A DNA stretch of 64,000 bases from an uncultured Desulfatiglans sp. (GCA_964499695.1 CAZCMD010000002.1:5423-69422), one strand, 5' to 3'. Positions 51,438 through 62,342 are shown, counted from the first letter of the stretch. Made by a program: numbers and translations. Notes: generated by a model not told the origin, from the letters alone.

Positions 51438-54086
51438 TCATTCGTTACTTTCAACCTCAGGATGATTTTCCTTTAACCATTTTCGGCTTACCTTTCCTCC
51501 AAATATACTGCGCATCGACTGAGGATTAACTATAGTGCTTAGATAAAGATGCGCTACAATCAGAATTAGGATTAACAATGCTGCCAGATCGTGAAGTGTA
51601 TAAAGCATAGCAAGATTGGTATTTATGTTATCCTTAAGTATAGCCAAAGAGACACCTGTGATGACCAGGAAAAAACCGCATGCGGCTATCATCCAGAATA
51701 ATATCTTCTGGCCTGCATTGAACTTGCCTGCAGGTTGTTCTCCGCGATAACCAAAATATCCACCCAGCGCCTTAAGCCACTTTTTGTCACTCTTGTTGAA
51801 AAGCATATCCCTGAACCAGATAAGCATCATCGCTATCCATGCTACACCAAATACAATGCCTATCCACATATGGAGGTTACGTGTCGGCATGCCATTTAGC
51901 CCCCGATTATTCTGTAAAAACAGTATGCCGGTTATTGCAAGGACAAGAAAAGCGGCGAGAGAAACATAATGTGCCAACCTTTCGGAGAGTGTGAATCGCA
52001 TAGTGAGGTCAGTCTCTTCGAGCGATGATCTAATGCTCCTCTGTCCATAGATCACAAAATGGAGCAACAAAACAAGTATCTCTATAAAAATTATCCAGAG
52101 ATTAGCGGGTTTTAAAATGGCCTCCCTGAACGAGCCAAGCCAGGCCTCAAGTGAAGTGATGCCCAGAATCGCATAGTTGGGTATCCATTCAGGTTGAGCA
52201 TCAGTACCAGTGAACAGTGCATCAAGAATAGCCCCATTAAAAAAGGCAGAGTCTCTGCTATGGCAATCAATACAGCCCCCTGACCCCAAAGCTGCCTTTG
52301 AGGGTGCAATATCATGAGAAAACTTATAAACCGATGCATATGCAGTAGCCTCATACTCCTCACGGTGAAGCTCTCTGACCTCTGTTGATGAAAAATATGC
52401 CTTGCTATCTGATACCCATACCAGCCGACGATTCTCAAGAGGAAAAGATGTTGCTGTAAGATAATCCTTTGTCGCTGTAAGTAGAGCCTCTATTTCCTCA
52501 TCACGATTAACCTCAATAATACCGTCCTTATTGTCGTCTGTTATCTTTGAAAGTTCAGGATATTTTTTTCCCGGATCTGCCTGATGTTGCGCCCACATCT
52601 GGTAAAAGTCCTTCATAAAAAGCTGGTTCAGCCCGGTCTTGCCTTGTTCTTCAAATCCAACCCATGAGCTGTGGACACGGTTAGCAGGGAAAATTTTACC
52701 CTTGTATCTTATAAGAGTGGGCCGGGTTATGTCAGTCGGCTGATCTTTGTTAGTAAATAGTTCCAGTTCCCCATAGTGGTTCCAAAAGTTCATCTCCTGG
52801 TCATAAAATGTCCATATGTGTTTCCCGGCAGGGTTAATCCTTGGCGCTGGGTTATAAACATCACTGGCCTGAACTAATGCGCTTTTTACTGAACGTGCCG
52901 GTATATGGCATGCCTGGCATGATATTTTATCTAGGTGCAGATCAGGAAGCCAGTCATGCCTTGCACGCGGGGCATTACCCCATCCTTCTATATGACATCT
53001 CTCACATGATCGAACCGTATTATCAAGGTCATTGCGGACAGAACCGGACGGGTCATCACCCTTCCCTATCTGGTGCACCTCTTTACCTCGGATTATCGGG
53101 TCAGCAGCATCGCTGCCAGCCGTATGGCAATCCACACAACGAAGTCCGGCAGCCATGTGGATATCCGTGCGGGTAGAGAATGAAGCCCCTCGCTTTTTCC
53201 AGCCAGGTTTGGCATGACATTTAAGACAGGTCTCATTTCGCGGTTCAGGAGTCATATGCAGCATGACATTGCCTTCGGCATCAAACCTGCTTTTATCATA
53301 GGAAATGGTTGGTTTTTCACCTGTGTTTACTTTTCCAATTATCTCCCCTAAACCTGCCCCTGCCGTCGCGGCCCAGCGAAAGTTCAGGTTGGCAAGCTCT
53401 TTGTTTCGTTTTGTATAGTCATACTCAGGCATATGACATAGAAGACAATCTGCCTCGATCACGCCAGTCTCTGCCCAACGCGCCTTGAAATAATCGCCAT
53501 CAAAATTATTCTCTCCGCCAGAGACCAGGCCTGATGCGGGATCTTGCATATTTATGTCATAGCGTTTGCCGTCACGGTCATACTCAAGAGGCCCTCCTCC
53601 TGGATGGCAATTACCACAGGAGGCGGTCACAAATTCAAAGGAGGTCATATCAATTATGCGTGCGTTTGTGTTATTTTTAGAGGCAAGCTGCCGATAAAGG
53701 GGAGCAGGTGAGCACCAGTTTCCGCCATAATTTCCGGGCGAACTTACCCAGTTGTAGCGTTTGGCCATGGCATCAGGGACTTTCTCCCCCTTACCCTGAG
53801 TAAAGTGAAAACCCTCGGTGATTTTTTCATAGTTGTGACATCCGCTAACACCGCAGGTCTGCTTGGGGGAATATGGTACAGTATCGTTTATACCTTTAAC
53901 AGGGTCAATTATATTTCCAGCCTCATCGCGTAGTTGAAAAGGTGGGCAGACATCAATGGCCTGGGGCACATCTTCATCATTAGAGGAATGATTACGAGTT
54001 TCTCCTATAGTCACATCAGGACTTACTCCCGCAAATAACATTATCATAAGGCCAATGCTTATAAAAGAAGTATAAATATATTTCAT
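51438..54086 (-). CDS. Fusion cytochrome: periplasmic octahaem c-type domain plus C-terminal FdnI/HydC-like b-type membrane domain (CbcL-like)
   Basis: Seven CxxCH motifs (SCGNCH, DCLLCH, TCLKCH, RCVDCH, SCERCH, SCQACH, GCIDCH) plus one CX4CH (CGVSGCH). The last 250 aa or so carry 4-5 TM helices with conserved His residues. I preferred the ATG at 54086 (GAGGGGG upstream). Confidence 0.8.
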   Translation of the reverse strand: MKYIYTSFISIGLMIMLFAGVSPDVTIGETRNHSSNDEDVPQAIDVCPPFQLRDEAGNIIDPVKGINDTVPYSPKQTCGVSGCHNYEKITEGFHFTQGKGEKVPDAMAKRYNWVSSPGNYGGNWCSPAPLYRQLASKNNTNARIIDMTSFEFVTASCGNCHPGGGPLEYDRDGKRYDINMQDPASGLVSGGENNFDGDYFKARWAETGVIEADCLLCHMPEYDYTKRNKELANLNFRWAATAGAGLGEIIGKVNTGEKPTISYDKSRFDAEGNVMLHMTPEPRNETCLKCHAKPGWKKRGASFSTRTDIHMAAGLRCVDCHTAGSDAADPIIRGKEVHQIGKGDDPSGSVRNDLDNTVRSCERCHIEGWGNAPRARHDWLPDLHLDKISCQACHIPARSVKSALVQASDVYNPAPRINPAGKHIWTFYDQEMNFWNHYGELELFTNKDQPTDITRPTLIRYKGKIFPANRVHSSWVGFEEQGKTGLNQLFMKDFYQMWAQHQADPGKKYPELSKITDDNKDGIIEVNRDEEIEALLTATKDYLTATSFPLENRRLVWVSDSKAYFSSTEVRELHREEYEATAYASVYKFSHDIAPSKAALGSGGCIDCHSRDSAFFNGAILDALFTGTDAQPEWIPNYAILGITSLEAWLGSFREAILKPANLWIIFIEILVLLLHFVIYGQRSIRSSLEETDLTMRFTLSERLAHYVSLAAFLVLAITGILFLQNNRGLNGMPTRNLHMWIGIVFGVAWIAMMLIWFRDMLFNKSDKKWLKALGGYFGYRGEQPAGKFNAGQKILFWMIAACGFFLVITGVSLAILKDNINTNLAMLYTLHDLAALLILILIVAHLYLSTIVNPQSMRSIFGGKVSRKWLKENHPEVESNE

Positions 54087-54128
54087 TTTACCCCCTCTTT
54101 TAAAAACCATTTTCTGAAACACAGTATC

Positions 54129-54557
54129 CTACCTGCCAAGCTCTTCCTCTAGATTTTCCACAAATGCCTTTATCTCATTCCTTACCCTTCTGTAATTGTT
54201 CAATGCCTTCTCCTCATCCTTTTCACCTTCAGAAAGCCTTGGCGGATCATCAAAACCCCGGTGCATCAATTTTGTCTTTGCAGGGAAATAGGGACATGCC
54301 TCATGGGCATTGTCACAAAGGGTTACCACATAATCAAATTGCATATCTCCGAGTGAATCTATATCTTTTGATTTCTGACCTGATATATCTACCCCTGCTT
54401 CAGACATTACCTTCACAGCTCTGGGGTCAACCCCTTTTGGAGATATCCCGGCAGAGTATGCATTGAATTTAATCTTTTGCAGATAATTTGTCCACCCTTC
54501 TGCCATCTGGCTTCTGCATGAGTTCCCAGTACATAGGAAGAGTATCTTTTTAGGCAT
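54129..54557 (-). CDS. arsC: Arsenate reductase, LMW-PTP / thioredoxin-coupled type
   Basis: MPKKILFLCTGNSCRSQMAEGW… with downstream TLC…EACP cysteines. The ATG lies 1 nt after the acr3 stop. Confidence 0.9.
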   Translation of the reverse strand: MPKKILFLCTGNSCRSQMAEGWTNYLQKIKFNAYSAGISPKGVDPRAVKVMSEAGVDISGQKSKDIDSLGDMQFDYVVTLCDNAHEACPYFPAKTKLMHRGFDDPPRLSEGEKDEEKALNNYRRVRNEIKAFVENLEEELGR

Positions 54558-54558
54558 G

Positions 54559-55659
54559 TTAACCCTCACACCTCACATGACACACACCTGTCAGTGTTTT
54601 AACTTCATATGGGAAATATTTTCTTTTTAACCATAATGCCACATTAACCAGTGCAATCAGTACAGGTACTTCAACAAGCGGCCCAATGACAGCGGCAAAT
54701 GCCTGCCCTGAGTTAATACCGAATACTGCTACTGCAACGGCAATGGCCAGTTCAAAATTGTTGGATGCCGCAGTAAAGCTTAAGGTTGTTGACTGCTCGT
54801 ATGTGGCCCCCGCCTTCATGGAAAGGAAGAAAGAGGCAAAAAACATTATTACAAAATAGATACAGAGCGGAATAGCAACCCGAATCACATCCATTGGGAG
54901 CTGAACAATATATTCGCCTTTAAGGGAGAACATGACCAGTATGGTAAACAATAGTGCAATCAGTGTAATGGGGCTGATCTTTGGGATGAATTTTTTCTCA
55001 TACCATTCCTTTCCTTTTGTATTAAGACCTATAACACGTGTAATAATGCCCGCAATAAAGGGAATACCGAGGTAGATAAATACACTTTCGGCTATCTGAC
55101 CGATTGATATATTAACAACAATACCCTTTAATCCAATCCACTGTGGTACAACAGTTATAAAGATGTAGGCATACAATGAAAAGAAGAGCACCTGGAATAT
55201 TGAATTGAACGCAACAAGACCGGCACAGTATTCGGTATCGCCTGATGCGAGTTCATTCCAGACTATAACCATTGCTATACATCTTGCGAGGCCAATTAGT
55301 ATCAGCCCAACCATGTACTCATGGTGCCCTGATAAAAAGGCGATTGCCAGCAGAAACATCAGGATTGGCCCTATAACCCAGTTCTGCACGAGCGAAAGAA
55401 CAAGTACCCTGATATTTTTGAATACACTGCCAAGCTGTTCGTATTTGACCTTTGCGAGAGGCGGATACATCATCAATATAAGACCTATCGCTATTGGTAT
55501 ATTGGTTGTTCCAACCTGAAAGATATTAATGACATCTTTAATTTTCGGAAACAGATATCCTGAAAAAACCCCAATTATCATTGCTGCAAAAATCCACAGC
55601 GTAAGGAACCTGTCAAGAAAAGAGAGTCTTTTAGTAATTGATCCACTCATTTTATTCAC
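54559..55659 (-). CDS. acr3: Arsenite efflux permease, ACR3 family
   Basis: …[21 protein letters not shown]…[22 protein letters not shown]…. Confidence 0.9.
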
Positions 55660-56359
55660 CTATAAATGGTTTAACAATAAAATAGAGACCCAACAGGATG
55701 ATAACTACACCTGCCCCCCTTCTAAACCATCTCCCGGTACCCTGCCACCTGCTGTTTTCCATTATACTTTTAACAAACCCGGTTGAGCTCCCTGCAATAA
55801 CAATGGGCAGACAATGGCCTATAGCAAAAAGGATTATGTAAATAATGCCAACAATGATCTTTTGCTGCACAGTAATAATGGCAAGCACAGGGGCAATAAA
55901 TCCAAAGGTGCAGGAGCCTGAAAGAATGCCATATGCAAGCCCTAAACCCAGTGCCCCAAGAAATCCCCTGAAGTTTAATTTATACAGCAGGCTGCCGGAT
56001 GCGGAGCATTTATCTACCCCGAGCATACCAAGTGCAATCCATATCAGAATAATTCCAATAATAACCTGCCAGTAATTACCTATATCTCCAAGCATCCTGC
56101 CAAGAAAGGCGCATATGATACCCACAAGAGCTATAGAGATAAAAAGTCCGGTGGAAAATAATAAAGAATATATGGCTGCCTTCCGGGGTGTTAAAAGGGT
56201 CTCCTGGCCCCCTACATATGCAACTATAAGAGGTATTGATGCCAGGTGACAGGGGCTGAACAGAACGCTTATCACACCCCACAGAAAACAACCCAGTGCC
56301 GCTATTGCAGGGCCTGCTGTTATCCATTCATTAACAGTAAGGAAAAAAGAATCAAACAT
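55652..56359 (-). CDS. ccdA: CcdA/DsbD-type transmembrane thiol-disulfide electron transporter
   Basis: …[16 protein letters not shown]… and …[13 protein letters not shown]… (two essential TM cysteines). Confidence 0.8.
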
Positions 56360-56382
56360 CAGATATTACTCCGAAACACCAA

Positions 56383-56775
56383 TTATTTTTCAACACCCAT
56401 TTTAGCAAGCTGGGCTACAATATCCTTTTCACTCATGAACCCGATGTGTCTGAAGACCTCTTCTCCACTTGGGTTAAAGAATACCTGGGTGGGAAGAGCC
56501 CTTAATTTGTATACATATTGCTGTTCAGGATCATCAAGGAGATTTATAAAAACAATGGCGGCCTTTCCCTCATAACTAGTTTTGAGTTTTTCCAGTATCG
56601 GAGACATCATTTTGCATTGAGTGCAGGTTTTTTTACCAAGTGCGACCATTGTCACCATACCCTTGACAGGAAGGTTTTTTAGGAATTCCTCATGCTCTTC
56701 AGCAGGCGTTTTACCTGATACAATTCCTGGCACAATAAGAATGGCTATAAGTATTGTAATTAATAAAGACTTCAT
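56383..56775 (-). CDS. Periplasmic thioredoxin-fold protein (TlpA/ResA-like, CxxC = CTQC)
   Basis: ATG at 56775 with GGAGG upstream. Signal peptide. …KKTCTQCKMMSPILEKL… It is a paralogue of the 40441-40935 product. Confidence 0.75.
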   Translation of the reverse strand: MKSLLITILIAILIVPGIVSGKTPAEEHEEFLKNLPVKGMVTMVALGKKTCTQCKMMSPILEKLKTSYEGKAAIVFINLLDDPEQQYVYKLRALPTQVFFNPSGEEVFRHIGFMSEKDIVAQLAKMGVEK

Positions 56776-56791
56776 TTTTATCCTCCACAAA

Positions 56792-57583
56792 TTATTTAAC
56801 AGCCTGTATATAAGCAGAGAAAACCAAGTTTTCAGCCCCTTTGGCCACATTCCAACTACTGATTATTTCATGACTCTTAGGTTTATTTATAATTGTTTTT
56901 TCTTTAAACCCATTGTCTGTAAGAATTTTTTCCACCTCACCGGGTGAAATAGCCCCGGACACTCAGCCAGTGTAGGCTTCAGGATCATTCAGAACCTGCG
57001 CTGGCAGATCTCCTGATCGTAATACATCAGAGATAATCATCCTTCCACCAGGTTTAAGGGCGCGGAATATCTCACCGAACACCCTGTTTTTATCGGGTGA
57101 AAGATTAATTACACAGTTGGATATTACCACATCAACAGAGCTGTCAGGTACGGGCAGTTCTTCTATTTTTCCCCACCTGAAATCAACATTCTTAAAATTT
57201 AATTTTTGAGCGTTTTCTTTGGCCCGTTCAACCATTTCGGGGGTCATGTCCACGCCAATCACCTTTCCTGATTCACCCACAATCCTTGCTGCAAGAAATG
57301 CATCAAACCCGGCGCCGCTTCCCAAATCCAGTACTGTTTCACCGGGTTTGAGTTTTGCCTGGCTTAATGGATTTCCGCATCCAAGCCCCAGGTTTGCCTC
57401 ACCGGGGGCAAGACGAAGCTCTTCATCAGTGTAATCAAGGGCCCTGCCTAGTTCTTCAATAGAGATATCCTGCCCTGTTTCTCCGCAGCATGAAGAACAG
57501 GCAATGCCACCTGATTTAGCAATATCAGAGTATTTTTTAATTACAATCTGATGAATTTTTTCTTTTTGTATTTCAATGCCCAT
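56792..57583 (-). CDS. arsM: Arsenite S-adenosylmethionine methyltransferase (ArsM-like) with in-frame UGA (56965-56963) read as selenocysteine, Sec207
   Basis: The ORF track stops at …NDPEAYTG(TGA). My hand translation continues in frame: VSGAISPGEVEKILTDNGFKEKTIINKPKSHEIISSWNVAKGAENLVFSAYIQAVK, ending at TAA 56794-56792. The upstream part carries the ArsM cysteines (CSSCC, GLGCGNP, SNCVINL) and the SAM motif VLDLGSGAG. The UGA sits where ArsM has the conserved G-C-(V/L)-(A/S)-GA cysteine. The extension closes an otherwise 187-nt gap to the next gene, leaving 16 nt. Confidence 0.7.
56924..56962 (-). promoter_or_regulatory. Candidate bacterial SECIS hairpin(s) immediately 3' of the UGA
   Basis: The mRNA reads UGA GUGUCCGGGGCUAUUUCACCCGGUGAGGUGGAAAAAAUU. 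Alternative 1 is CCGGG/CCCGG (5 bp, 9-nt loop). Alternative 2 is UUUCACC/GGUG(G)AAA with apical loop CGGUGA (containing GGU) starting 20 nt after the UGA. Confidence 0.4.
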
Positions 57584-57590
57584 ATATTAT

Positions 57591-57971
57591 CTATGCACCC
57601 CCGCAACACACCTTTTTAATCTCATCTTTTACCCTCTGAATCTCAAGGTGTTTCAGATCAAAGTCCTTGCTCTTTTTGATTCCCAGATCAGTTAGAACAA
57701 TATAATCTTTTAAAGGAACATCTGCCCGAGCAAGCGTAGCCTTTGCGCAGCCCACTTCACATCCATCAATGGCTATCATGCGGGGCGTATCCTTTGCCGA
57801 CTGTACAAAACCCGAAAGACCGCCACCTATCCCTGCAAGACAGAACATCTTTCCAAAACCTTCCTGCGTAAGTTCAACAGCAGCCCTGTTGGCTAGCTGA
57901 CCCACATTTGATGCGCCTGAACAGGCAAGAATCATAATATTCCCATCAGTTGTACAGCAATTTTCTGCCAT
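57591..57971 (-). CDS. DGC-domain putative metal(loid)-binding protein
   Basis: …ILACSGASNVGQLAN…AIDGCEVGCA… and a C-terminal CCGG. The family is commonly found in ars clusters. Confidence 0.65.
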   Translation of the reverse strand: MAENCCTTDGNIMILACSGASNVGQLANRAAVELTQEGFGKMFCLAGIGGGLSGFVQSAKDTPRMIAIDGCEVGCAKATLARADVPLKDYIVLTDLGIKKSKDFDLKHLEIQRVKDEIKKVCCGGA

Positions 57972-57992
57972 TTTTTTATCCTCCTTAAATGA

Positions 57993-58226
57993 TTATTGTT
58001 GTATCCAACCTTTGATCTCATCCTTGGTTGGTATCTTTCCTACGCTTTTTACCTTGCCATCCACAACAATAGCAGGTGTCCCGAACACACCGTGTTTAGC
58101 TATCTCAAGGGTGTCAGTGATTTTTTCAACATTTACATTTATTCCTGCCTCTGCCACGGCATCCATCACGTTTTTCATGGTAGCCTCGCATCTTTTACAT
58201 CCCGGTCCTAATACCTTTATTTCCAT
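57993..58226 (-). CDS. Thioredoxin-family 'redox-active disulfide protein 2' (Thioredoxin_3)
   Basis: MEIKVLGPGCKRCE…GVFGTPAIVVDGKV… 77 aa. Confidence 0.85.
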   Translation of the reverse strand: MEIKVLGPGCKRCEATMKNVMDAVAEAGINVNVEKITDTLEIAKHGVFGTPAIVVDGKVKSVGKIPTKDEIKGWIQQ

Positions 58227-58255
58227 AATTACCTCCTTTTTAATATTACTTATTA

Positions 58256-58327
58256 TTCACCGCAAAGGCGCAAAGAGTGCTAAGTTTTTTTTGTTTTTCT
58301 CTGCGTCCTTGGCCTCTTTGCGGTGAA
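58256..58327. repeat. REP-like imperfect palindrome (CGCAAAG units) inside the ars operon
   Basis: ttcaccgcaaag…(about 48 nt with a T-rich centre)…ctttgcggtgaa forms a 12-bp perfect outer stem. Inner arms are cgcaaaggcgcaaagag and ctctgcgtccttggcctctttgcg. Confidence 0.55.
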
Positions 58328-58330
58328 ACT

Positions 58331-59503
58331 TTACATAGTTAACCATCCATAGGTCATACCCGCTATAGTGGATAGAATCACAATTATTGAACAGAACACG
58401 GCTGTCTTTTTAACTCCCATAATCCCGTTTATGACCAGCATGTTAGGCAGAGACAAAGCCGGCCCTGCCAGAAGCAGCGCAAGCGCAGGCCCTTTGCCCA
58501 TGCCTGCCCCAATAAGCCCCTGCAATATGGGGACTTCAGTAAGGGTTGCAAAATACATTAACGCCCCTGCTACTGAGGCAAAAAGGTTTGCCCATAGAGA
58601 ATTGCCACCAACCAGGCTCTCTATATAGTGTTCAGGTATAAGCGCCGGATGACCCGGTCTTCCAAGTAAAAAACCAGCAACAAGTACACCTGCGAAAAGA
58701 AGCGGGAAAATCTGTTTCATGAACCCCCATGTTGATTCGACCCAGTTTATTCTTTCATCTTTTTTGAACCACTGTTTGATCATAAACCCTAAAACAATCA
58801 GCAAAATAAAGGTGATGTACCATTTTATTGAAAATATGAAGGGCCAGATCCCTATTTCCCCCTGGGCTGGTCTGGCAAAGGCGGCAAATATAAGTATGAG
58901 AACCATTGTAAATATAAACATGGCATCTTGTGTCAGTGTCCGGCCCTTTTCCTCTTCATCAGGCAGATATATCTGCCCTGCCTCTCTTGCCGCATCATCC
59001 TTTCTGAAGATAAATGCCATCAGAATGCCTGTTATTATAGCAAATAGCACCGCTCCGACAGCCCTTGCTAAACCAAGCTGCCAGCCAAGGATTCGCGCAG
59101 TCAAGACAATGGCAAGTACATTTATCGCGGGCCCTGAATAAAGAAAGGCAGTAGCAGGACCAATACCCGCACCCCTTGTATATATACCAGCAAAAAGGGG
59201 AAGAACCGTACATGAACATACAGCAAGTACTGTCCCGGACACGGAGGCAACAGAGTATGATAATATCTTATTTGCCTTTGAGCCAAAATATTTAAGGACA
59301 GATGCCTGGGATACAAATACTGCTATAGCACCGGCAATAAAGAAAGCCGGTATAAGGCATGTGAGCACATGCTCCCTTGCATACTCCTGAAGCATAAGAA
59401 ATGCCTCAAGACCTGACCTGCGGACAATTTCACTGTGCCAGGGTATATAATATGCCCCTAAAAATATAACGATTATAAGTAATAATTTATTACGTTCTTT
59501 CAT
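58331..59503 (-). CDS. arsP: ArsP-like permease (DUF318 family; putative organoarsenical efflux)
   Basis: 390-aa polytopic protein. Vicinal Cys pair in a TM segment (…GTVLAVCSCTVLPLF…). It is linked to Thioredoxin_3 and ArsR, as is typical for this family. Confidence 0.75.
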   Translation of the reverse strand: MKERNKLLLIIVIFLGAYYIPWHSEIVRRSGLEAFLMLQEYAREHVLTCLIPAFFIAGAIAVFVSQASVLKYFGSKANKILSYSVASVSGTVLAVCSCTVLPLFAGIYTRGAGIGPATAFLYSGPAINVLAIVLTARILGWQLGLARAVGAVLFAIITGILMAFIFRKDDAAREAGQIYLPDEEEKGRTLTQDAMFIFTMVLILIFAAFARPAQGEIGIWPFIFSIKWYITFILLIVLGFMIKQWFKKDERINWVESTWGFMKQIFPLLFAGVLVAGFLLGRPGHPALIPEHYIESLVGGNSLWANLFASVAGALMYFATLTEVPILQGLIGAGMGKGPALALLLAGPALSLPNMLVINGIMGVKKTAVFCSIIVILSTIAGMTYGWLTM

Positions 59504-59515
59504 GGTATTATCCCC

Positions 59516-59539
59516 AATATCTATATTCTAATATAGATA
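59516..59539. promoter_or_regulatory. 11-2-11 perfect inverted repeat between arsR and arsP (operator-like)
   Basis: ATATCTATATT-CT-AATATAGATAT. It shares the CTATATT/AATATAG half-site with the repeat at the arsR promoter. Confidence 0.5.
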
Positions 59540-59552
59540 TATAGCGCATTTA

Positions 59553-59897
59553 TCATCTGCAGCAGACTTCATCCCTTCGGACTGATGGAAGCTTATCCAT
59601 AAGGGATATGATATCTTTTTCATTCTTGAGCCAGTGTTTAAGGTTACCCAGAAGGCTTGCAGCATAGGGTGATCCATTCCCATCGGACAGATAATAATCC
59701 ACCCATAACCCATCCTTTCTGCTTTCGACCAGACCTGCTTCTTCAAGTATTTTAAGGTGTTTTGATGCGCTCGGCTGGGCAATCTGGAGCGCCTCCCTTA
59801 TTTCGCAGACACACATTTTCTTATGTTGAAGCATTTTTACTATCTTAACCCTGTTTGGATCAGACAGGGCCTTCATTACCTTTATAAAATCTTTCAT
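59553..59897 (-). CDS. arsR: ArsR/SmtB-family repressor (second copy)
   Basis: MKDFIKVMKALSDPNRVKIVKMLQHKKMCVCEIREAL…SKHLKILEEAGLV… I preferred the ATG at 59897 (GGAG upstream) because a promoter lies inside the longer TTG-initiated ORF. Confidence 0.85.
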   Translation of the reverse strand: MKDFIKVMKALSDPNRVKIVKMLQHKKMCVCEIREALQIAQPSASKHLKILEEAGLVESRKDGLWVDYYLSDGNGSPYAASLLGNLKHWLKNEKDIISLMDKLPSVRRDEVCCR

Positions 59898-59911
59898 TCG
59901 TATCTCCACAT

Positions 59912-59957
59912 CTATATTCTTTTTATGGAATATAGTCTCCACATATGCCATTGTCAA
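59912..59957 (-). promoter_or_regulatory. Sigma-70 promoter (TTGACA-17-TATATT) with an overlapping 8-bp inverted repeat; probable autoregulatory ArsR operator
   Basis: The minus strand reads TTGACA(59957-59952)-atggcatatgtggagac-TATATT(59934-59929). The inverted repeat CTATATTC-N8-GAATATAG at 59912-59935 overlaps the -10. Confidence 0.6.
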
Positions 59958-60065: not shown

Positions 60066-62342
60066 TTAATGGCTGTCAAGCTGTGGGTAGGATTTTACGA
60101 GATCTTTATCAAGCTTAAAGGATTCATTCAGTATCTCAAGCAGTTTTATATTCTGCCTGACTGCCATCAAACAATCACCCACAATTGCATAGAAAAGAAT
60201 GCTAAGTCTTGTTTTTGATGAATTATCCTGTATCCTTTTGATCTGCTCGATATTCGCCCTGTCTGCAATCTGATTTAATCTGTTATATTGCTCAACAATG
60301 TTCTGATATTCACTGATATCCTTATTTATGAAGGCAGTCTCTACCTTTATAAATACATCCATCACAATATCTTTTATCTCCTTAAGCTCTTCGATCTGAA
60401 CACCAAGCAGCCCTTTATGCTTATTTGCGATATGTATATATGACCTCAACACAATATCTCTGAACCCGTCAGAAAGTTTCTGGAGGATACGGATTGTCCG
60501 TGCATAATTATGAGAGAGTTTATGATCTTCCTTCTGCTGAAGCCTCAACACCTTGAAGACATTTGCCATAATGATATTGACCCACACCTGGTGTTTTTTA
60601 ACCACTTTTCTTTGTATATTTAATGTGCTGATATCCTGCATGAAAAGGGCATCAAGTGTTGTATCAAAACATCTCCTGAATTCACCAATCAAGATGGCCA
60701 GGTGATTGAAGGTTATTGATATAGCCGCTTTAGGATCAGAGATCTTCTTCAGGTTTAATATCTCTGTTTCTTTAATCTCTTCTGACCGTGTCTTATGCTT
60801 TTTATGATTGCGGTAGATAATCAATATGGATATGACAAACAGTAGTGCAATCCCTATAATCTCCAGTGATGCTATTATGTAGCAGAAGAGAAATGCAAAT
60901 ATAAAGGCAACCAGGGCGGTCATAAACCACCCGCCTATTACTGTCAGCACCCCTGTAACCCTGTAAACAGCGCTTTCTCTTCCCCAGGCCTGATCAGCAA
61001 ATGAGGTACCCATGGCAACCATAAATGTTACATATGTGGTAGAAAGGGGAAGTTTCATCGACGTGGCATATGCTATGAGGGCGCTCGAGACCATCAGGTT
61101 TACCGAGGCGCGCAGCATATCGAACTGTGGTCTTCTGTCCAGGTCTGGAGTTGCCTTTCTACTTGACGGGTCTATTCTTCTGTCAACGATCTCCTTTACC
61201 CTTTCAGGTATAAAGCAGCACAGATTGTTGAAGAGTGCATCGGTCATGCTCACAATCTTTCTTGAGATCCACATGGATTCAAAAAGTTCAGTCCCTTCAT
61301 CCTGCTGCCCCAGGCTTATCTCTGTACGTGTAACAGTGCGGCCTTTTTTAGAAAACCAGAGAGTAAGCACCATAATTATACCTGACAACACCAGGAGCAT
61401 CCCCTGGGTATGCACCTTGTCACTTAATGCGCCCATCATCTGAGTCATCGGGTTTCCTGATGCCACTGCTATCTGATATGCATTAAGTCCGGCAAGGGGC
61501 ACTCCAATGAAATTTACAAGGTCATTGGATGCAAAGGCCATTGCCAGGGCAAAGGTGCCAGCGAGGACAATTATCTTTAATATTTTAATCCTGAATAAAA
61601 TCAGGGCCTGGAATATTATTGCTGAACAGATAAAAATGTAGGCCATCAGTCTGAAGGTATGCTCCTTTATCCAGAGAGCTATCTCAGGTGTTATAAATGT
61701 TGCCCCTTTTACCCCGTTAATCAGCATGAAATATATAATCAGCACCATTGCAAGGCCACCCCACAGCGCGCCATATCGTTTGATTTTTTTCTCATAGTTA
61801 AAAGTAAAGATAAGGCGTGTAAAAAACTGGATGACTGTACCGAAAAAGAAGGCAACAATAATTGATAATAGAATACCGAATATGATAACCATTGCCTTTG
61901 ATGTGTTGATGTATGAAATAACATCGACAAAACTTGCGCCTGAATCCTGTACCTTTAAAAAGGCCATTGCAACGGCGGCACCAAGCAGATCAAAAACAAT
62001 AGAAACTGTTGTTGATGTTGGAAGACCATAGGTATTGAATACATCAAGGAGGAGTATATCGGTGAACATAACCGCAAGAAAGACCGTGATCAGCTCCGGC
62101 ATGGTAAAAAACTGGGGATGAAAAATACCCTTTCTTGCCACCTCCATCATCCCGCCTGATGCAGCGACTCCGGTAAGGATACCAATGCTCGCAATAATAA
62201 GTATTACGAAAAATGGGGCAGCCTTTGAACCTATGGCTGAATTTAAAAAATTAACCGCATCATTTGCCACGCCAACTATCAGATCAAAAAAGGCAAAGAG
62301 CAGCAAGAGACCGACAAGTATATATATAACTTCTATTCCCAT
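60066..62342 (-). CDS. pit: PiT (PHO4) family inorganic phosphate transporter with a long C-terminal PhoU-like helical domain
   Basis: N-terminal GVANDAVNF (GANDxxN) and a second …SNDLVNFIGVPLAG… PiT repeat. The last 230 aa or so are soluble and helical (PhoU-like pattern). 758 aa. Confidence 0.75.
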   Translation of the reverse strand: MGIEVIYILVGLLLLFAFFDLIVGVANDAVNFLNSAIGSKAAPFFVILIIASIGILTGVAASGGMMEVARKGIFHPQFFTMPELITVFLAVMFTDILLLDVFNTYGLPTSTTVSIVFDLLGAAVAMAFLKVQDSGASFVDVISYINTSKAMVIIFGILLSIIVAFFFGTVIQFFTRLIFTFNYEKKIKRYGALWGGLAMVLIIYFMLINGVKGATFITPEIALWIKEHTFRLMAYIFICSAIIFQALILFRIKILKIIVLAGTFALAMAFASNDLVNFIGVPLAGLNAYQIAVASGNPMTQMMGALSDKVHTQGMLLVLSGIIMVLTLWFSKKGRTVTRTEISLGQQDEGTELFESMWISRKIVSMTDALFNNLCCFIPERVKEIVDRRIDPSSRKATPDLDRRPQFDMLRASVNLMVSSALIAYATSMKLPLSTTYVTFMVAMGTSFADQAWGRESAVYRVTGVLTVIGGWFMTALVAFIFAFLFCYIIASLEIIGIALLFVISILIIYRNHKKHKTRSEEIKETEILNLKKISDPKAAISITFNHLAILIGEFRRCFDTTLDALFMQDISTLNIQRKVVKKHQVWVNIIMANVFKVLRLQQKEDHKLSHNYARTIRILQKLSDGFRDIVLRSYIHIANKHKGLLGVQIEELKEIKDIVMDVFIKVETAFINKDISEYQNIVEQYNRLNQIADRANIEQIKRIQDNSSKTRLSILFYAIVGDCLMAVRQNIKLLEILNESFKLDKDLVKSYPQLDSH

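Follow-up and report, generated by a model that had tools for sequence, protein, structure and literature searches.

An ArsM gene of an uncultured Desulfatiglans with a probable selenocysteine codon at an arsenic-ligand column

The arsenite methyltransferase (ArsM) gene of an uncultured Desulfatiglans sp. carries an in-frame UGA at codon 207, which very probably encodes selenocysteine (Sec) at an arsenic-ligand column of the enzyme. The gene lies on the minus strand of a 64,000-nucleotide stretch of DNA (CAZCMD010000002.1:5423-69422 of GCA_964499695.1), which we call the window. The Sec reading, put forward in an earlier note on this DNA, is supported by the alignment of the UGA with Cys224 of CmArsM, by a column that holds only TGA or TGY among relatives, by the coverage of the NCBIfam profile NF008823 and by a conserved hairpin after the UGA. 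Sec-containing ArsM has been on record since 2007, and the gene in the window is a mis-annotated member of this known family.

Results

The reading frame continues past the UGA

The frame is opened by an ATG at 57583 on the minus strand. The annotated ORF (56963..57583) encodes 206 aa and ends ...DPEAYTG, directly before the TGA at 56965..56963, just as the earlier note had it. The note had also described 56 further open codons, and translation gives exactly these, running from VSGAISPGEVEKILTDNGFKEK to NLVFSAYIQAVK and closed by a TAA at 56794..56792. The full translation of this extension is VSGAISPGEVEKILTDNGFKEKTIINKPKSHEIISSWNVAKGAENLVFSAYIQAVK, and it is homologous to the C-termini of Cys-containing ArsM proteins. 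All three cysteine motifs pointed out earlier (CSSCC, GLGCGNP and SNCVINL) occur in the product. The coordinates likewise agree with the earlier statement that read-through closes most of the gap to the next gene. The ATG of that gene, which encodes a secreted, signal-peptide-bearing thioredoxin, is at 56775, and the intergenic gap measures 187 nt (56776..56962) without read-through versus 16 nt (56776..56791) when the UGA is read through; the shorter gap contains the GGAGG of the thioredoxin gene. The coordinates of all features are collected in Table 1.

We then asked how the arsM TGA compares with others in the window, and scored codon usage on either side of every in-frame TGA on both strands of the 64 kb. 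The arsM TGA ranked first for a two-sided coding signal, and the scan found no second convincing selenoprotein candidate in the window. Elsewhere in the window TGA ends 13 of 41 long ORFs; it is therefore an ordinary stop codon here, and the genetic code is the standard one.

Table 1. Features of the arsM locus, in coordinates of the window.
Feature	Position	Strand	Evidence or remark
arsM, complete coding sequence	56792..57583	-	206 codons + UGA (Sec207, probable) + 56 codons + TAA; product 263 aa
In-frame UGA, probably read as Sec207	56963..56965	-	PDB alignments to 4kw7/4fr0 and 5evj: Cys at the same column
C-terminal 56 codons missed by gene callers	56792..56962	-	covers the final helix-strand-helix-strand part of the methyltransferase fold
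SAM-binding motif VLDLGSGAG, residues 84-92	57308..57334	-	GxGxG-type; translation, Pfam and alignment
Cys69 codon (GLGCGNP), equivalent to CmArsM Cys72	57377..57379	-	structure alignment; invariant in A1, A2 and the 80 loci
Cys157 codon (SNCVINL); CmArsM counterpart: Cys174, an As(III) ligand	57113..57115	-	alignment; invariant in A1, A2 and 80/80 loci
N-terminal cluster C29-x-x-C32-C33 (CSSCC)	57485..57499	-	invariant in A1 and A2; inside the NF008823 match
Putative bacterial SECIS hairpin in the coding sequence	56930..56949	-	stem starts 13 nt past the UGA
Hairpin 5' arm UUUCACC	56949..56943	-	
Hairpin loop CGGUGA	56942..56937	-	
Hairpin 3' arm GGUGGAA	56936..56930	-	
GGAGG ribosome-binding site of the downstream thioredoxin gene	56782..56786	-	inside the 16-nt gap
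Surrounding ars cluster	54129..59957	-	all genes on this strand; NCBIfam and Pfam matches
ArsR	59553-59957	-	NCBIfam/Pfam
ArsP_1-family permease	58331-59503	-	NCBIfam/Pfam
ArsE-type thioredoxin-like protein	57993-58226	-	NCBIfam/Pfam
DGC-domain protein	57591-57971	-	NCBIfam/Pfam
Secreted thioredoxin	56383-56775	-	NCBIfam/Pfam
DsbD_TM (CcdA-like) membrane protein	55652-56359	-	NCBIfam/Pfam
ACR3	54559-55659	-	NCBIfam/Pfam
Thioredoxin-type ArsC	54129-54569	-	NCBIfam/Pfam

The read-through product is a complete ArsM

Read through the UGA, the product matched the NCBIfam arsenite methyltransferase profile NF008823 with 328.3 bits (cutoff 263) over residues 6-263, spanning profile positions 3-267 of 272; the score rose above the cutoff only with read-through. 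Since the match covers residues 6-263, the 56-codon extension belongs to the ArsM homology. Thus the earlier suggestion that the downstream codons are ArsM-like stood up both to formal alignment and to this profile match, which continues through residue 263. Pfam placed a class I SAM-methyltransferase domain (Methyltransf_31) at residues 79-225 (8.5e-44). The 263-aa product is, by these matches, a putative arsenite S-adenosylmethionine methyltransferase.

The best matches among solved structures were Chlamydomonas ArsM (5evj), Cyanidioschyzon CmArsM (4kw7 and 4fr0/4fs8) and human AS3MT (8xt7). In phmmer alignments to CmArsM (4kw7/4fr0) and CrArsM (5evj), position 207 fell on the column of CmArsM Cys224, C157 on that of Cys174 and C69 on that of Cys72, so the earlier placement of the UGA at the Cys224 column is confirmed by formal alignment to solved ArsM structures. 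Position 207 is also equivalent to Cys206 of human AS3MT. The fourth conserved ArsM cysteine, Cys44 in CmArsM, presumably has its equivalent in the N-terminal C29/C32/C33 cluster. Full-length Cys relatives that are 63-67% identical to the window protein read ...AYTG-C-VSGAISPGEV...VFSAYIQAVKP, and they align to the read-through product free of gaps.

The role of the extension can be judged from a structural model and from a mutant. We used the AlphaFold2 (AF2) model of the closest Cys homologue (P0003, 67% identical to the window protein), which has a mean pLDDT of 69 with a confident core and whose best PDB matches were the ArsM/AS3MT structures 4fr0, 6cx6, 5evj and 8xt7. Past the Cys, this model forms helix 219-229, strand 232-238, helix 242-247 and strand 259-267, mostly at pLDDT 90-97. 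The segment after the Cys is thus part of the fold, so that a 206-aa product would stop before the fold is complete and would also lack the essential ligand. The C206S mutant of human AS3MT is inactive (PMC3877260), which argues that a 206-aa product without residue 207 could not methylate arsenic.

Only TGA or TGY occupies the column among relatives

To follow the column among relatives, one genome per species was scanned (185,579 species), the 80 closest loci were taken and the codon under residue 207 was mapped in each. The column held TGA in 19 loci (L001-L018 and L026) and TGT or TGC in the other 61, while TAA or TAG occurred in none of the 80. The earlier note had proposed this comparison of orthologues, Cys or UGA on one side and UAA/UAG on the other, and its outcome is on the side of Sec. 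The hosts of the TGA genes are Desulfobacterota MAGs (Desulfatiglans, Desulfobacteraceae, Desulfosarcina, Desulfatirhabdium and Desulfobulbaceae) and Nitrospirota/Thermodesulfovibrionales MAGs. The closest genome relatives of the window gene, 75-78% identical, come from MAGs labelled 'Deltaproteobacteria' or Desulfatiglans.

Past the TGA, every TGA gene has at least 56 further open codons, which reach about the C-terminus of the Cys forms. Over 20 TGA genes, the downstream substitutions at codon positions 1, 2 and 3 numbered 3361, 2370 and 6377. Because the substitutions fall mostly on third positions, the frame past the UGA is, by this measure, evidently translated and under purifying selection.

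A neighbour-joining tree was built from the 150 residues before the column, with loci L001-L080 and the proteins of the P series. All TGA forms fell into one clade, in which Cys forms were nested at at least five places. This suggests repeated Sec-to-Cys replacement in the ArsM clade, although the tree, having no bootstrap values, is only indicative. A separate observation concerns two sister JGI metagenomes, 3300057056 (L081) and 3300057050 (L082). Their arsM alleles are 99.5% identical as protein, with TGA at L081:1632-1634 versus TGC at L082:1772-1774, and the hairpin is still intact in the Cys allele (AUUUCACC-CGGCGA-GGUGAAA, L082:1787-1806). The pair points either to a standing polymorphism or to a Sec/Cys switch that happened very recently.

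A hairpin after the UGA is conserved in the TGA genes

A hairpin occurred in 20 of 20 TGA genes, with 5-8 bp, a G-rich loop of 4-6 nt and a start 10-13 nt past the UGA, and it was absent from that place in the 61 Cys (TGY) genes. The mean folding z-score was -1.5 in the 20 TGA genes versus +0.13 in the 61 Cys genes (Mann-Whitney p = 6e-8, a value that overstates independence, because the TGA genes are kin and represent only two or three clades). Among 13 Desulfobacterota genes, all seven stem pairs were 100% paired, compared with 50-58% when the partners were slid. Two compensatory changes were found (A-U to G-C and U-A to C-G), one of which costs a Val-to-Ala substitution. The Nitrospirota-type genes encode another peptide and have another stem (GUUCC/GGAAC), with the hairpin at the same spacing; the hairpin of locus L018 is GGUCUC-GGUC-GAGACC, with a GGUC loop.

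The earlier note had proposed folding the RNA downstream of the UGA as a check on read-through, and the two ways of doing so gave different answers. Folded alone, the 69 nt from the UGA in the window had a z-score of -0.10 and could not be told from shuffles, so the single-sequence check was uninformative, whereas the comparative one was positive in all 20 TGA genes with fully paired stems. For the window hairpin, an alternative register is nearly isoenergetic. Rfam gave no matches at gathering thresholds over the whole window, and permissive thresholds around the UGA returned noise only.

Another hairpin, CCGGG...CCCGG at +8..+26 (56940..56958, minus strand), was considered as the SECIS. It overlaps the first, so that the two are mutually exclusive, and Gly (GGN) and Pro (CCN) codons account for most of it. 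With 77% pairing in the 13 sequences and a position too near the UGA, it is probably not the SECIS.

The gene sits in an ars cluster

The order of genes is ArsR, ArsP_1, ArsE-type, DGC, ArsM(Sec), secreted thioredoxin, DsbD_TM, ACR3 and ArsC. ArsP is a family reported to export methylarsenite, and the placement of ArsM beside ArsP is functionally coherent. Several features of the neighbourhood deserve a record of their own. Four thiol-redox or metal-binding accessory genes flank arsM (55652-56775 and 57591-58226, minus strand), and a similar set is present in L082. The listed ORFs of the CcdA-like protein and ACR3 (55652-55659) and of ACR3 and ArsC (54559-54569) overlap by 8-11 nt, which would suggest translational coupling. 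Directly downstream of arsC, 51438-54122 (minus strand) encodes an 894-aa protein whose CxxCH-rich N-terminal part matches multihaem c-type cytochromes and whose C-terminal part matches a formate dehydrogenase gamma / cytochrome b556 domain (122 bits); such a fusion next to an ars cluster is unusual. Just upstream of arsR, 60066-62342 (minus strand) encodes a phosphate transporter of the PHO4 family (758 aa); arsenate might enter the cell this way, and the gene adjoins the resistance cluster.

The Sec-insertion machinery was also sought. tRNA scans of the 64-kb window and 19 related loci found no tRNA-Sec, and neither the window nor the flanks of these 19 loci contained selA, selB or selD. An NCBIfam scan of those window ORFs that have the size of SelA, SelB or SelD returned AsnRS, SerC, TolC, FlgK, FlgI and others, and no Sec machinery. 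Sec use is established for Desulfobacterota, and we assume from this lineage that the host is competent for Sec insertion.

Discussion

Alternatives to selenocysteine

A UGA in the middle of a conserved gene can also arise by inactivation, and a pseudogene would be easy to make here: one base change turns TGC or TGT into TGA, after which the 56 downstream codons would be a decaying remnant. Near-identical Cys and TGA alleles do exist in sister metagenomes, and the GenBank-derived annotation gives the protein 206 aa. However, the same TGA recurs in 19 species-level genomes of two phyla, the sequences in 110 of the 120 closest protein clusters stop here, and the downstream frame is intact, with changes mainly at third positions and neither TAA/TAG nor frameshifts. 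The hairpin is conserved as well. We thus consider inactivation extremely unlikely. The recurrence of the TGA in independent assemblies from many studies speaks also against a sequencing or assembly error in one contig, for which one could cite the metagenome-type contig and the fact that one NCBI contig is the recorded source of the exact 206-aa protein; its chance is close to nil.

If the stop were genuine, a 206-aa protein would be made together with a separate 56-aa peptide starting at a GTG right past the TGA, and in the window the codon after the TGA is indeed GTG, a possible start. This codon is ATT, ATC or ATA in 8 of 20 TGA genes and GTT or GTA in one more; there is no conserved restart, which disfavours a separate downstream start. 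No ribosome-binding site precedes the GTG, and such a split would lose the essential arsenic ligand and cut the Rossmann fold ahead of its last two strands, so we give a split gene hardly any credence. Alternatively, the UGA might be read through as something other than Sec, by a reassigned code (Trp or Gly), by near-cognate suppression with Trp or Cys, or by insertion of Cys via the Sec machinery. The amino acid that a UGA specifies cannot be read off from the sequence by itself. Nevertheless, the use of TGA as a regular terminator in the window shows that the code is not reassigned, the homologues have Cys and never Trp or Gly at the column, and the hairpin with SECIS-like spacing is conserved only in TGA genes. 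Read-through without Sec is accordingly very unlikely, and selenocysteine is the reading that we adopt.

A proposed mechanism

Under the selenocysteine reading, the 7-bp hairpin with its G-rich 6-nt loop, 13 nt past the UGA, would recruit SelB-GTP-Sec-tRNA(Sec), and Sec would be inserted in place of termination at codon 207. As(III) would then be held by Sec207 and Cys157; for the first methylation Cys69 would join them as a third ligand. The N-terminal Cys cluster may serve as redox partner. The methyl groups would come from SAM bound at VLDLGSGAG, and the methylated trivalent product would be exported by the ArsP-type permease, whose gene lies upstream, two genes away. An As-Se bond may bring a catalytic benefit.

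Consequences for annotation

Gene callers truncate this anaerobic ArsM subfamily systematically. In a collection of 5.8 billion proteins, 110 of the 120 closest clusters (P0001-P0120) end in AYTG, AFTG or AYTA and so stop just one residue short of the column. The ArsM subfamily is therefore recorded as fragments of about 205 aa, which lack the essential ligand and the two final strands of the fold. The exact window protein on public record is the 206-aa form, which stops before the Sec column. Several clusters that end before the Sec column are still named 'arsenite methyltransferase'. When arsM is counted or modelled in anoxic sediments or paddy soils, the UGA should be read through.

It is possible, though we hold it rather doubtful, that the Sec form is the predominant and not a rare ArsM of anaerobic sulfate-reducing and Nitrospirota-type sediment bacteria, systematically truncated by callers; that an As-Se bond at the ligand which holds arsenic through all methylations gives a distinct chemistry (for example tighter As(III)/MAs(III) binding, or activity under sulfidic conditions); and that frequent Sec/Cys switching tracks selenium availability. 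If the Sec form were both predominant and truncated, arsM surveys may under-count or mis-score Sec-ArsM. The Sec here sits at an arsenic-binding position, not in a classical thiol-oxidoreductase motif. The phenomenon is not new, and the properties of the Sec-ArsM enzyme are a modest and well-defined question; the earlier remark that such an enzyme had not been characterised biochemically appears to hold, as our literature search found no such paper.

Comparison with known systems

The SECIS of E. coli fdhF lies about 11-13 nt after its UGA and has a G-rich apical loop with GGU. By these rules the window hairpin resembles it, lying within the coding sequence at similar spacing with GGU in the loop, but it differs in its stem sequence, in having no evident bulged U and in the lack of an Rfam match.

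With the structurally characterised enzymes, namely CmArsM (4fr0, 4fs8, 4fsd and 6cx6), CrArsM (5evj) and human AS3MT (8xt7), the window protein shares the SAM-binding core. It shares the ligand columns of CmArsM as well, where Cys72, Cys174 and Cys224 correspond to C69, C157 and U207. Unlike these characterised Cys enzymes, the window protein would carry Sec at the Cys224-equivalent ligand. It is about 110-120 residues shorter than the eukaryotic ArsM/AS3MT proteins, whose C-terminal domain it lacks, and its identity to them is about 33%.

NCBIfam also describes fused ArsM selenoproteins: NF041537 (ArsM/AhpD), NF041536 (ArsM/DUF2284) and NF047649 (methyltransferase/UXPK-star). Their ArsM domain has the same UxxG Sec motif (PMC13188914). 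These models are homologous to residues 6-233 of the window protein, with scores of 171-188 bits where the cutoffs are 460-575. Whereas each fused protein carries two or three Sec and a further domain, nothing follows residue 263 in the window protein, which has no additional domain. A fused double or triple selenoprotein was thus rejected, the scores being far below the cutoffs and a second domain missing.

The closest counterpart is the published single-domain family. 'Arsenite methyltransferase' (PRK11873/NF008823, WP_011987699.1) is listed as an experimentally verified selenoprotein family in PMC9312934 and PMC13188914, both of which cite Fomenko et al. 2007 (Science 315:387) for it. arsM was named among selenoprotein families in a 2008 paper (PMC2398784), and a 2026 review (PMC13188914) gives the motif UxxG for the NF008823 arsenite methyltransferase. 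Secondary sources credit Fomenko et al. with the proposal that Cys157 and Cys207 form the redox-active site of mouse AS3MT; as we read these sources, the experimental verification would concern cysteines in the mammalian protein and not selenium in a bacterial ArsM. In the window protein, the context G-U-V-S-G-A is UxxG in an NF008823-type protein, and UxxG fits only the Cys224/Cys206 column, because C157 reads C-V-I-N and C69 reads C-G-N-P. That WP_011987699.1 has its Sec at the same column is judged from the motif in the reviews and from secondary citations. Like the published UxxG selenoprotein, the window protein belongs to NF008823 and is a single domain with one (probable) Sec in the same motif. 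It differs in nothing of kind; the window copy comes from an uncultured Desulfobacterota-like organism and stands in the public record at 206 aa.
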